Shown: positions 42,941 through 45,689 of the stretch, in pieces
How the letters are laid out: the number at the start of each line of letters is the position of its first letter
Numbering within the stretch: the first letter of the stretch is position 1
Virus record (IMG/VR): IMGVR_UViG_3300033148_008638
Location: 1 to 59,531 of that record
Strand: one strand, 5' to 3'
DNA length: 59,531 bases
DNA from: a virus
Taxonomy: Duplodnaviria > Caudoviricetes
Translations under genes and position numbers: made by a program
Notes under the pieces: generated by a model
The model's input: the letters and a program-made list of their open reading frames with translations, nothing else
What the model was told of the DNA's origin: nothing
The model's database searches: none

Positions 42941-45689
42941 ATGGCAGGTGTAAGGAGATCTTCGGAGGTCTCACTATGCTGAGAGGTGTAGTTAAATACG
43001 GGGTGAATTGCTGGGATCTCCCCCACAAGGGGACAATCAGCAGCCAAGCTTGGAAAGTAATTTCCTTGAAGGTTCAGAGACTAACTCTCGACTCCTACCG
43101 CATGGCGGGGAGAGTAATAGAGACACGAGTGCCCTGCATCTCTATGAGATGAAGATATAGTCCGAGCTTATAGGTAACTATAAGAAACAAAGTTTAAATG
43201 ACTTTGTGATAACAACTCTGCAGAGTTCACGGAAGCCATGAAAGCCCAGTCCTACGATCAATAACGGTCGCTCTACTTTGAGAAAAGTAGATGATAATGG
43301 GATGAATTGCTGGGATCTCCCCCACAAGGGGACAATCAGCAGCCAAGCTTGGAAAGTAATTTCCTTGAAGGTTCAGAGACTAACTCTCGACTCCTACCGC
43401 AGCATGGCGGGGAGAGTAATAGAGACACGAGCATCCCACATCCTATAAATAGGATGAAGATATAGTCCAAGCTTATAGGTAACTATAAGAAACAAAGTTT
43501 AAATGACTTTGTGATAATAAAACTGTGGTTCTGGGAGAATTATGATGAGCTTCCTCCAAGATATGAAGATATATTTGAAGTAGTAGAGTCCGATAAAGCA
43601 TAGATAAATATGTGCGTAGTTAGCTAAATTCGGTGAAGACCTCTGGAAGGTAATACCGAGCAAACCTTTGAAAGGGTGCGTAGAGATTATGAATCTAAAT
43701 AAGTTAAATAGAAATGAAATAAAAAGTGCTATAATTGGAATGGTAATTGGTGATGGTAATCTAACTAAGAGGTGTCGAAATTGTAATGCTTATTTCCAGA
43801 TGAGTCATTGTGCCAGACAGTTAGAATATATGAATTGGAAGATAAATATAATACATACGATAACTGGTGGAAGCACTCAAGAAACACAAAGAACACTAAA
43901 TGGTAAATTATTTAGAGGATACCATTTCAGTTCACAAAGACACCCAACATTTACTAAACTATATTCAAGATTTTATCACAATGGTGTAAAGGTTCTTGAT
44001 GAGTATATAGTAAAAATGATAACTCCATTAGCTTTAGCCATTATCTATATGGACGATGGTACATTTGCTAAACATCACTTAACTGGGAGTAATGGAAAAG
44101 ACAGTTTTTTTCTTTGCATGCAGAATTTTGACTATGCTAATCAAATGTTACTTAGAAAAAGTCTTAAGATAAACTTTGGTTTAGAATGGAATATAAACAA
44201 AGCAAATAAGACAAATTATGGCACATATAATTACAGGATGAGATTATCTAGTCGCTTCAATGATAAGTTTATAGATATAATTAAACCATATGTATTAGAT
44301 GTCCCCTGTATGCATTATAAATTAGGTTCACACGCTAACACATCGAGTAATTCGATGTTGATATAGTCCGACCTCTATGGCGACATAGAGAGCTTGGCAG
44401 AAATGACCAAGCCCACTTTTAATAAAGTGAGTAACAAACGTGATGAGAAATTTACCTCAGCGATCGGTCTTGGTGATCTATTGGAAAAACCAGAGGGTAC
44501 AGACCTTCAGACGGATAAGCCGATAGAGAGTTACACCGTAGTTTGTAAGAACAGAACTTGGGGTAGAAAGACACAGTTTACCTATGAGACAGTGCAGGAT
44601 GCGCAGTCAGTACAAAATCTGCTTTCTGATACTGTAGGGTCGTGGGGTAAGTCTTTACCAAGAACTAAAGATAGGTGGTATGCCAACTTTTTCAACTACG
44701 GTGCTGTTACCGCTGGAAATGCTATTTATAACAATGGCATTACTGGTGTTGTGGATGATCCATCTGGTAATTTGATTTATGATGGTCAGCCTTGGTTTGT
44801 TGCCAATGATGGGCATAAAGACAAAGCTGGTAACGGTTACAGTAACTATGCTGCAAGCCGTTCGTTGACTCATAGCAATCTTCAAACTACTTATATTACA
44901 TACACCACAACTAATGCTAAAGATGAGAAAGGTAATAATATAGAGTTAATACCTGATACATTGTTAATTCCTCCCGCTCTTAGGTTTACAGCTCAGGTAA
45001 TATTAAATACCACACTGTTACCAGGGAGTATGGATCTTAATAAGGGTTCCCTTATTCTGAAAAGAATATTGAAAAACGGGGTGAATTGCTGGAACACCTT
45101 GGCTAATAAAGCCAAGGCAATCAGCAGCCAAGCTTGGAAAGTAATAGTAATGACGACACGAGTGCCCTGCATCTCTATGAGATGAAGATATAGTCCGAGC
45201 TTATAGGTAACTATAAGAAATAGAATTTAAATGATTCTATGATAACAAAACTGAATGATACCAATGTATTAGCTGCTATTGTCAATCCAGTCCAATGGGC
45301 CAATCTAACTGATACAGATGGATGGTTCCTTGGTAAAGCCAAGAAGGGCCTTATGGCTACTGATAGGCTTGATGTGATGATCGACTTTTGGCAGGATCTT
45401 AATAAGGGTTCCCTTATTCTGAAAAGAATATTGAAAAACGGGGTGAATTGCTGGAACACCTTGGCTAATAAAGCCAAGGCAATCAGCAGCCAAGCTTGGA
45501 AAGTAATATCTCTATGAGATGAAGATATAGTCCGAGCTATATAGTAATATATAGAAATAGAATTTAAATGATTCTATGATAACAAAACTGGAAACAAATC
45601 TCGATTATTACGCAAGTATCGTCAGCCGTTTTGGCGGTGTGGTCACAAACTTCCGATATTGGTTTGCGTGTAATATTGCTAGTAGTTGA
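42941..45689 (+). CDS. major capsid protein, Mu gpT-like, 322 aa; join(42941..42959,43221..43258,43526..43601,44443..45035,45254..45397,45591..45689)
   Basis: GGAGGTG RBS and ATG at 42941. Removing five group I introns gives a 969-nt open frame: MAGVRRSEFTEAMKAQSYDWFWENY...SDKAYEKFTSAIGLG...EKPEG...LLIPPAL...GSMDNDTN...LTDTDGWFL...DFWQDETN...SRFGGVVTNFRYWF. Confidence 0.9.
42960..43220 (+). mobile_element. group I intron 1 (ORF-less, 261 nt)
   Basis: P1 GAGAU/CU-UCGG-AGGUCUC with U.G at the splice site; P AATTGCTGG, Q AATCAGCAGCC, R GTTCAGAGACTA, S AAGATATAGTCC; terminal G. Confidence 0.92.
43259..43525 (+). mobile_element. group I intron 2 (ORF-less, 267 nt)
   Basis: P1 CGAU/C..GGUCG; P, Q, R and S as in intron 1; P3 TGGGATG/CATCCCA; terminal G. 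Confidence 0.92.
43602..44442 (+). mobile_element. group I intron 3 (841 nt) with LAGLIDADG ORF
   Basis: P1 GCAU/A..UGUGC; P3 GTTAGC/GCTAAC; P AATTCGGTG, Q AATACCGAG, R GTAGAGATTA, S GATATAGTCC; terminal G. Confidence 0.9.
43689..44366 (+). CDS. intron-encoded LAGLIDADG homing endonuclease
   Basis: SAIIGMVIGDG, LAIIYMDDG, MHYKL; ATG immediately after the R element. Confidence 0.88.
   Translation: MNLNKLNRNEIKSAIIGMVIGDGNLTKRCRNCNAYFQMSHCARQLEYMNWKINIIHTITGGSTQETQRTLNGKLFRGYHFSSQRHPTFTKLYSRFYHNGVKVLDEYIVKMITPLALAIIYMDDGTFAKHHLTGSNGKDSFFLCMQNFDYANQMLLRKSLKINFGLEWNINKANKTNYGTYNYRMRLSSRFNDKFIDIIKPYVLDVPCMHYKLGSHANTSSNSMLI
45036..45253 (+). mobile_element. group I intron 4 (218 nt, lacks R/P7 5' strand)
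   Basis: P1 GGAU/CUU..AGGGUUC; P, Q, P3', P8, S and P9 present; GTTCAGAGACTA absent; terminal G restores the frame. Confidence 0.85.
45398..45590 (+). mobile_element. group I intron 5 (193 nt, lacks R/P7 5' strand and P3 3' strand)
   Basis: First ~110 nt identical to intron 4; S and P9 present; terminal G restores the frame. Confidence 0.85.

Follow-up and report, generated by a model that had tools for sequence, protein, structure and literature searches.

Two group I introns with deletions in the catalytic core within the major capsid gene of a metagenomic Caudoviricetes genome

The capsid gene and its introns

The stretch of DNA considered here (the window) is a single virus record of IMG/VR (IMGVR_UViG_3300033148_008638; Duplodnaviria, Caudoviricetes) of 59,531 nucleotides (nt), linear and 64% complete according to CheckV, which contains at 42941-45689, on the plus strand, a major capsid gene interrupted by five group I introns. 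Two of them, introns 4 and 5, lack a segment of the catalytic core that includes the 5' strand of the P7 helix and, in intron 5, also the 3' strand of P3 (P3'). The deleted forms were found in none of the other viral, metagenome and prokaryote contigs or protein clusters that were searched, and in the close relatives of the gene site 4 is unoccupied and the intron of site 5 is intact. The two introns may be the product of a recent double deletion that inactivated them in cis and left a defective genome.

The exon junctions were set with P0004, an uninterrupted homolog of 308 amino acids (aa) that is 82% identical to the capsid protein of the window. Exons 3 to 6 are collinear with its residues 8-306 (82-96% identity), and it fixes the junctions at intron 3 (..DKA, Y, EKFTSAIG) and, with tblastn, at intron 4 (PGSMD followed by NDTNV) and intron 5 (FWQD followed by ETNLDYY). 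Exon 2 is too short for tblastn and was matched by eye to the first residues of P0004 (MKAQSYD), and exon 1 encodes part of a 12-aa N-terminal extension that is also present in homologs of 320 aa, which start with MAGV.R..FTEAMKK. Distant relatives of the protein in GenBank phages are annotated as major capsid protein; exon 4, besides its match to Phage_capsid_4 (the cut-off of PF25209 is 27 bits), also matches the Mu gpT-like family (PF10124). A tblastn search of the window with P0004 recovered exons 3-6 and no other match, i.e., the gene is present in a single copy; a second capsid gene was considered and none exists in the window, though the contig is 64% complete. The presence of five introns in a gene of ~320 aa is unusually dense (Table 1).

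With the Rfam group I model (RF00028, gathering threshold of 50 bits), matches above the gathering score were obtained at 42950-43184, 43249-43489, 45026-45217 and 45388-45554, that correspond to introns 1, 2, 4 and 5; the last two matches span 192 and 167 nt, respectively. Intron 3 is recognised only in its 3' part (44235-44390, 25.9 bits), and its open reading frame (ORF) encodes a LAGLIDADG homing endonuclease (PF03161, 1.5e-34; phrog_11023). A U capable of pairing with a G in the internal guide precedes each 5' splice site, and the last nucleotide of all five introns is G. In the P1 helix of introns 4 and 5, GGAU and CUU, located on either side of the splice site, pair with AGGGUUC, including a U.G pair, and the 3' ends read ..AAAACUG. 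The sequencing runs listed for this stretch were four DNA runs (X1-X4), examined as Logan contigs, and no RNA run; none of the four is evidently the source sample, and contigs of this kind are unable to show the absence of a junction. The boundaries of intron 4 are independently proven, because an X1 contig joins 45035 straight to 45254, omitting exactly 218 nt (CT..TG).

Table 1. Exons and introns of the capsid gene, in coordinates of the window
Feature	Coordinates	Strand	Description
Exon 1	42941..42959	+	MAGVRR + 1 nt; GGAGGTG 10 nt upstream of ATG
Intron 1	42960..43220	+	Intact group I, 261 nt; Rfam 88.8 bits
Exon 2	43221..43258	+	Ends ..SEFTEAMKAQSYD; P0004 begins MKAQSYDWFWENYDE
Intron 2	43259..43525	+	Intact group I, 267 nt; Rfam 85.3 bits
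Exon 3	43526..43601	+	WFWENYDELPPRYEDIFEVVESDKA + 1 nt; 92% identity to P0004 residues 8-32 (tblastn)
Intron 3	43602..44442	+	841 nt, separate group I lineage; LAGLIDADG ORF 43668-44366
Exon 4	44443..45035	+	Capsid main body; PF25209 Phage_capsid_4 29.4 bits; 82% identity to P0004
Intron 4	45036..45253	+	218 nt, core-deleted; junction 45145/45146; Rfam 77.0 bits
Exon 5	45254..45397	+	NDTNV...IDFWQD, 48 aa; 96% identity to P0004 residues 229-276
Intron 5	45398..45590	+	193 nt, core-deleted; junction 45507/45508; Rfam 56.1 bits
Exon 6	45591..45689	+	ETNLDYYASIV...CNIASS, then stop; 87% identity to P0004 residues 277-306

The deletions in introns 4 and 5

When aligned with intron 1, intron 4 lacks 51 nt (43062-43112 of intron 1) and resumes at the equivalent of 43113, and intron 5 lacks 76 nt (43062-43137) and resumes at the equivalent of 43138. 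Both deletions begin after ..GGAAAGTAAT, and the GTAAT at this boundary ends at 43061 in intron 1. In intron 4, GTAAT is joined to AGTAATGACG, i.e., to AGTAAT, with both copies of AGTAAT kept; in intron 5 it is joined to ATCTCTATG, which begins with ATCTC. The microhomology of the junctions with the intact sequence is of 1 nt at most. The first 110 nt of the two introns are identical and form part, with 4 nt of the preceding exons, of an exact repeat of 115 nt (45032-45146 and 45394-45508).

The lost segments include the R motif, which in intron 1 is GGTTCAGAGACTAAC (the P3' of this intron is TGCCCTG). In the whole window this motif occurs only at 43071 and 43370, i.e., once in each of the intact introns 1 and 2. 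A separate copy of the lost fragment outside the introns was considered and ruled out, as the window has none. Intron 4 retains P1, P2, both strands of P3, P4-P5, the 5' strand of P6, the 3' strand of P7.1 (GACG), P8, the 3' strand of P7 (TAGTC), P9, P9.1 and the terminal G, and it is devoid of the 3' strand of P6, J6/7, the 5' strand of P7, the 5' strand of P7.1 and the P7.2 hairpin. Intron 5 has lost all these elements together with the rest of P7.1/P7.2 and the P3' strand (TGCCCTG); the P3 helix is intact in intron 4 and broken in intron 5, and of P7.1/P7.2 there are only remnants in the former and none in the latter. Regarding the P4-P6 domain, P4 and P5 are intact in both introns, and the 3' strand of P6 and J6/7 are gone. 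The P7 helix holds the guanosine-binding site and is indispensable for group I catalysis; the R/S pairing that forms this helix, a requirement of a self-splicing ribozyme, is absent from introns 4 and 5. Their Rfam scores stay above the cut-off with the R region gapped or forced, and the Rfam model gives no score to the P7 pairing.

In the minimum free energy (MFE) folds of both introns, P1, P2, P4-P5, P8, P9 and P9.1 appear as expected. In the fold of intron 5 (45494-45537), the P6 5' strand GCUUGGA, which has no partner, pairs over 7 bp with UCCGAGC, a segment located just 3' of the P7 3' strand; these two segments are complementary in the intact introns as well.

The frame that enters from the upstream exon stops at 45183-45185 in intron 4 and at 45515-45517 in intron 5, and the lengths of these introns, 218 and 193 nt, are not multiples of 3; therefore, read-through cannot rescue the capsid protein. 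If intron 4 is left unspliced, the stop at 45183-45185 costs the protein its last 80 conserved residues. An earlier description of this locus (the original prediction) had reported the 51-nt and 76-nt gaps with their coordinates, the loss of the P7 5' strand from both introns and of P3' from intron 5, the group I nature of the two introns and their location in an essential gene, here the single conserved major capsid gene, and the failure of read-through. The alignments reproduce the coordinates exactly, and the remaining statements agree with the motif count, the Rfam and PF25209 matches, the comparison with P0004 and the position of the stops.

The upstream frame closes 8, 1 and 0 full codons into introns 1, 2 and 3 (42960-42983, 43259-43264 and 43602-43603, respectively), and in intron 3 the stop (TAG) is the very codon that spans the splice site. 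In introns 4 and 5 (45036-45185 and 45398-45517), and in the full-length orthologs found in two relatives, P0002 and P0003, the frame stays open for ~40-80 codons through P1-P8, and therefore ribosomes would enter the ribozyme core. According to a survey of group I introns (PMC2504315), ribosomes in the intron core impair splicing and there is selection against such entry. The 3' ends of introns 4 and 5 (45239-45253 and 45576-45590; ATGATAACAAAACTG) include an ATG that would be read in the frame of exons 5 and 6 (MITKL followed by the exon), as well as TGA and TAA in a second frame. This ATG is probably a coincidence, as there is no Shine-Dalgarno sequence upstream, and the synthesis of the capsid protein as three polypeptides, with starts at the ATGs at 45239 and 45576, is implausible for the same reason.

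Structure of the intron family and constraint on the lost strands

The structure of the family was built on nine intact members plus the two deleted introns, and the modelled elements were P1, P2, P3, P4, P5, P6/P6a, P7 (as a pseudoknot), P7.1, P7.2, P8, P9 and P9.1. In the resulting alignment 90.5% of the structure cells are paired, versus 42-46% in controls with slid partners; both-sided changes occur in 43 of the 73 pairs, and the observed covariation was reached by none of 500 shuffles. The P7 helix (GACTA/TAGTC) is invariant in the nine intact rows, and in all nine a bulged A and a closing G-C precede GACTA. In P7.1 the four pairs covary (CTCT/AGAG, CGTC/GACG, TTTC/GAAA and TGGA/TCCA, among others), as do two of the three pairs in the outer part of P7.2. 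Between the 5' strand of P7 and P3' the intact siblings carry two additional helices, i.e., the P7.1/P7.2 insertion that defines the subgroup which we take to be IA2.

This structure also identifies what is left in the deleted introns. The GACG of intron 4 is the 3' strand of a P7.1 of the CGTC/GACG type, such as that present in L001 and L002 (two contigs that carry members of the family), with its partner lost. The P3 helix of intron 2 is TGGGATG/CATCCCA, unlike the P3 of introns 1, 4 and 5.

In the locus L016 (2354-2963; the same arrangement in L017) two tandem introns are located just upstream of and within the start of the capsid gene, and these introns show compensatory variants of P7, GGCCA/TGGTC and GGTCA/TGACC. 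Other structured RNAs were detected in related loci: an Rfam int-alpA RNA lies just downstream of the capsid gene in L013 (3965-4032), L022 (4003-4072) and L020 (6084-6151), and L004 has a HEARO RNA match at 937-1128.

Occurrence in relatives

A search for the same deletions in related phages, as proposed with the original prediction, found none in viral and metagenome contigs or in 120 capsid homologs. The window's own record and very near ones are possibly masked in the searched collections, so that absence elsewhere is to be read as no independent second occurrence. In the related loci (38 that encode relatives of the capsid protein, plus L001 and L002) the 19 Rfam group I matches measure 238-305 nt and have, without exception, an R strand complementary to S. 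Nine of the 120 capsid homologs, besides the window's own, read into an intron, and all nine contain the R-encoded residues KVQRL or RSET. A looser pattern, in which the spacing from Q to S is 28-58 nt, recovered 22 loci in metagenome contigs, 19 of which are true introns (R is present in 19/19) and three are chance matches (L044, L056 and L059); in viral contigs R was kept in 8/8. The R of these 27 short-spaced introns is GGTTCAGAGACT or a one-base variant of it (GGCTCAGAGACT in L061). In prokaryote genome contigs the looser pattern had no match. The strict junction pattern gave no match in viral and metagenome contigs, and the two matches to the pattern of the site-5 junction are due to chance, both in unrelated genes. 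The search with the pattern of the type-B P5 (CCTTGGCTAATAAAGCCAAGG), a variant described below that in a full-length copy would be linked to TTCCTTGAAGGTTCAGAG, gave no match. The ORFs that cross the junctions, P0001 and P0121, are singletons, each present in 1 contig among ~15 billion proteins.

The closely related gene that encodes P0002 (on a 33 kb NCBI contig, exons 99% identical) has PGSMD and NDTNV uninterrupted, so its site 4 is empty, and after FWQD it runs into a full-length intron at site 5 (..KVQRLTLDSYRMAGRVIETRVPCIL). The same arrangement is found in P0003, which is 87% identical. Since a relative with 99% identical exons has these two characteristics, the deletions are younger than ~1% exon divergence. 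The X1 contig mentioned above shows 6 differences in the 593 nt of exon 4 and none in exon 5, and it agrees with P0002; it represents the allele in which site 4 is unoccupied, in a relative whose exons are 99% identical. A contig of X4 has 133 letters where intron 5 of the window has 56, and this surplus of 77 nt corresponds to a full-length relative. Site 4 is occupied only in the window, and is empty in the other 119 capsid homologs. The DNA of the P0002 relative was also sought among related loci with the single exon, and with megablast and blastn against phages, in all cases with no match. The nearest introns in isolates and named records are those of crAss-like phages, with 72.9-74.0% identity over 68% of intron 1, and those of Flavobacterium phages, with 85% identity over 23% of this intron.

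The contig L001, from a sibling IMG/VR dataset, is a chimera. Its positions 1-~3025 are 98.3% identical to 40005-43215 of the window (scaffold gene, an ORF of 179 aa, capsid exon 1 and the 5' part of intron 1), and positions 3025-3977 are 99.9% identical to 272-1224 of L002, which hold an intron and the 3' exon of another gene. The capsid body is absent from the 10.7 kb examined, and the join lies inside the shared intron core. This chimera is of the ordinary k-mer-supported kind, and it is either an assembly chimera or the product of intron-mediated recombination.

Mosaic make-up and origin of the deleted introns

The P1-P5 region of introns 4 and 5 is of the type here named B, which is also that of P0002. 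In the 5' strand of P6 and in the stretch from P8 to S they have the sequence of intron 1, and in these regions P0002 differs (VREVILE; end ..PCIL). The P9 of intron 4 is of the intron-1 type and that of intron 5 is of another type, which had been regarded as a compensatory variant of its own. The variant is real; however, the P9/P9.1 of intron 5 also match, with 98.6% identity, a partial intron at the start of L002 that covers only the region from P3' to the 3' end. As judged from these alleles, the variant is a polymorphism of the family, and not the result of change or selection after the deletion. Before the splice site, sites 4 and 5 have only GGAT in common, and the introns at these sites would have spread by guide-sequence recognition (reverse splicing) or by ectopic conversion, and not by endonuclease homing. 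The mosaic make-up of introns 4 and 5 suggests an ectopic origin of the deletions, as well as of the conversion tracts, by recombination or repair between the sibling introns within the capsid gene.

The window has 34% G+C, no N, and an ORF coverage of 82%. It is otherwise intact and of a replicative type, as it encodes a DNA polymerase, a primase-helicase, a helicase, the terminase large subunit, the portal and a scaffold protein; a decayed prophage was ruled out on these grounds. Between the scaffold and the capsid genes there is an ORF of 179 aa (42338-42877, plus strand) without a match in Pfam or PHROG and 98% conserved in L001, the product of which may be a head decoration or accessory protein. 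A free-standing HNH endonuclease is encoded at 15340-16428 on the minus strand (phrog_1314, 3.7e-94). This enzyme and the LAGLIDADG endonuclease of intron 3 (43668-44366) are possible sources of the double-strand breaks that would drive recombination among intron copies.

Interpretation

The reading that we prefer, tentatively and with a probability of about 0.4, is that the contig carries a recent and real double deletion, inactivating in cis, which arose by ectopic repair among sibling introns and rendered the genome defective. Introns 4 and 5 would have derived, by recent internal deletions, from a full-length family of phage group I introns bearing P7.1/P7.2. With the loss of the P7-forming strand, and also of P3' in intron 5, neither RNA would be able to build a catalytic core alone, and splicing of both introns would be lost. 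The pre-mRNA would then keep the two introns, translation would stop at 45183-45185 and the capsid protein would be made without its last 80 residues. Given that close relatives have an empty site 4 and an intact site-5 intron, the contig would represent a defective variant, short-lived or dependent on complementation, that is either transient or carried by co-infecting intact relatives.

Mis-assembly and a defective genome were put forward from the beginning as serious alternatives to any function of the deleted introns, and both deserve this consideration. An assembly or consensus error of local extent would mean that the four intron copies, nearly identical and located within 2.7 kb, were wrongly resolved and that the introns at sites 4 and 5 are truly full-length, or that the path was threaded via rare deletion reads that bypass the repeat. 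We regard such an error as unlikely, albeit one to be taken seriously. Both anomalies are located in the repeat cluster and have a common left boundary, 28 nt past the last base specific of the intron-4/5 type; nevertheless, the junctions require novel k-mers that a standard de Bruijn path switch between repeats, of the kind seen in L001, cannot make, and given that the microhomology is of 1 nt at most and that both copies of AGTAAT were kept, such a switch is excluded as the source. Also, this assembly was able to resolve exact repeats, of ~100 nt between introns 1 and 2 and of 115 nt between introns 4 and 5, and the distances of the three boundaries to the closest base that is specific to one copy, 28, 6 and 31 nt by our own count, fit no single k-mer length. 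An error would be in line with the existence of the deleted forms as singletons (P0001 and P0121) and with the lack of matches to the strict junction pattern in viral and metagenome contigs; however, absence elsewhere is weak evidence when the window's own records are masked. It would also agree with the lack of X1-X4 contigs across 45145/45146 or 45507/45508, and with the chimeric nature of L001, which was joined inside the same intron family and has no capsid body. On balance, we infer that the deletions are real DNA.

If so, a defective genome has to be weighed against residual or assisted splicing, and several observations speak against the former. It is difficult to account for both deletions, each of them lethal by itself, in a genome that is intact elsewhere if the lineage ended with the first; the common left boundary and the identical 115-nt 5' halves suggest descent or conversion over several generations, with continued replication; exon 5 is unchanged and there is no decay elsewhere, i.e., no sign of long-term pseudogenisation; and neither junction is crossed by any X1-X4 contig, in a family where the sibling contig L001 indicates that repeat assemblies are not fully reliable. 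That a genome intact elsewhere carries two nested deletions sharing one boundary would be easier to understand if the first one was tolerated, as expected if splicing depended on a helper: intron 1, either in the same pre-mRNA or after its excision, would lend the segment P6'-P7-P7.1/7.2-P3' to introns 4 and 5, or would excise them in trans. The strands kept by introns 4 and 5 are complementary to those that intron 1 could provide: S (TAGTC) and the 5' strand of P3 (CGGGGTG) match exactly its R and P3' (TGCCCTG), and the 5' strand of P6, which has the same sequence as in intron 1, is complementary to the P6 3' strand of this intron, so that the three docking helices are possible in trans; the trans-excision mode is conceivable, since the intron 1 guide AGGTCTC can pair with GGAT and the following CT at both 5' splice sites (6 pairs including U.G). 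The ends of the deletions fall on element boundaries, i.e., the L6 loop, the beginning of P8 and the AGTAAT that is conserved in P7.1/7.2, and group I cores made of separate RNAs are reported to be natural in organelles (PMC2731911, PMC3873408, PMC10027690, PMC5436844). Introns 1 and 2 had been named in the original prediction as possible donors; this holds for intron 1, which is strand-compatible and the only such donor in the transcript, but not for intron 2, which is incompatible at P3 (TGGGATG/CATCCCA) and unable to supply P3' to intron 5. Even so, dependence on a helper appears improbable to us. The deleted forms recur in no other genome among the viral, metagenome and prokaryote contigs and the protein clusters searched; an intact helper would have to open its own P3/P7 pseudoknot, and the cis pairing would be isoenergetic and favoured; the orphan GACG of intron 4 would remain unpaired with the CTCT of the helper. 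Furthermore, hundreds of copies of the capsid protein are required and two consecutive inefficient steps would be costly, and relatives with intact arrangements would outcompete this genotype. It is less probable still that intron 4 retains activity in cis, with GACGA (45152-45156) and TAGTC as a substitute P7 and CCAAGCTTGG as a mini-P6. Rfam aligns AGU--AAUGACGA to the R consensus with 77 bits, but the model ignores the P7 pairing; GACGA and TAGTC form four of five pairs, and the P3 of intron 4 is intact and forms in the MFE fold, but a G.A mismatch is left, and the bulged A, the preceding closing G-C and J6/7 are missing. Moreover, GACG is the ancestral 3' strand of P7.1, present beside the true R in L001 and L002, and not an evolved replacement, for which reason GACGA as a newly evolved P7 was ruled out. 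Residual activity of this kind would be of no help to intron 5, which also lacks P3'. A single metagenomic contig underlies the whole case, and the mundane readings, i.e., a defective genome and an assembly error, together outweigh dependence on a helper.

Comparison with known systems

The appropriate comparison group is presumably that of the phage introns of subgroup IA2, such as those in td, nrdB and sunY of T4 and the three introns in orf142 of the Staphylococcus phage Twort. Like these, the introns of the window match RF00028, follow the order P1-P2-P3-P4-P5-P6-P7-P7.1/7.2-P3'-P8-P7'-P9-P9.1, include one intron that bears an endonuclease, and occur as several in one essential phage gene. 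Unlike them, introns 4 and 5 are devoid of the 5' strand of P7, and P3' is also missing from intron 5; both elements are, to our knowledge, always present in the known self-splicing IA2 members.

Natural group I introns that are spliced in trans are reported for cox1 of Isoetes (PMC2731911), rnl of Prasinoderma (PMC3873408), the rRNA of Haplopteris (PMC10027690) and cox1 of placozoans (PMC5436844). If splicing of introns 4 and 5 depended on a helper, they would share with these systems a core assembled from more than one RNA molecule. The organellar bipartite introns are reported to be broken in a loop, with an exon on each half and nothing missing; in contrast, in the window the exons are in cis, a strand of the core is absent, and a third-party intact intron would be needed as donor.

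A closer analogy to the logic of the helper proposal is found in the tripartite group II intron formed by intron 1 of psaA and the tscA RNA in Chlamydomonas, where a separate RNA supplies the missing intron domains. This system differs in being an organellar group II intron with a dedicated helper gene and protein cofactors, and we know of no equivalent of tscA for group I introns or in phages. On the other hand, group I ribozymes have been assembled from several pieces or made to act in trans in vitro, e.g., the three-piece sunY ribozyme, the Tetrahymena ribozyme with P4-P6 or P5abc supplied in trans and the trans-splicing T4 td intron, and the Pneumocystis trans-excision-splicing ribozyme is an engineered trans-acting group I ribozyme. 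From these systems it is clear that the chemistry of complementation and excision in trans is possible; however, they are engineered, have no competing cis partner, and show low efficiency.

In PMC2504315, group I introns are proposed to follow a cycle of invasion, endonuclease loss, degeneration and precise loss, in which introns without an ORF decay or vanish. The coexistence of empty-site and occupied alleles in close strains, as seen here for site 4, is in keeping with this cycle as there outlined. In the Bacillus cereus group, on which this survey was centred, the internal deletions described remove the endonuclease ORF located in a loop and leave the ribozyme fold untouched, unlike the present case, in which the catalytic core itself was deleted inside an essential gene. 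A search of the literature outside subscription journals found no core-deleted or helper-dependent group I intron reported in phages.

Significance

A group I intron located in an essential gene should remain competent for splicing until it is precisely lost, and a deletion of its core is expected to be lethal. If the deletions of introns 4 and 5 are real and the genome is dead, ectopic recombination among dense intron copies would be able to destroy the capsid gene, and defective genomes would reach an abundance sufficient to be assembled. If they are an artefact, multi-copy intron families would corrupt viral contigs, of which L001 would be a second example. If, on the contrary, the deletions are real and the phage is viable, a ribozyme would depend on a sibling in vivo, as a natural counterpart of the multi-piece ribozymes made in vitro and as a group I analogue of the tscA helpers, and it would offer a model of selfish RNAs that parasitize one another. 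Should dependence on a helper be true, this would be the first natural case of group I introns that are not autonomous, with helper and dependent ribozymes within one phage gene.

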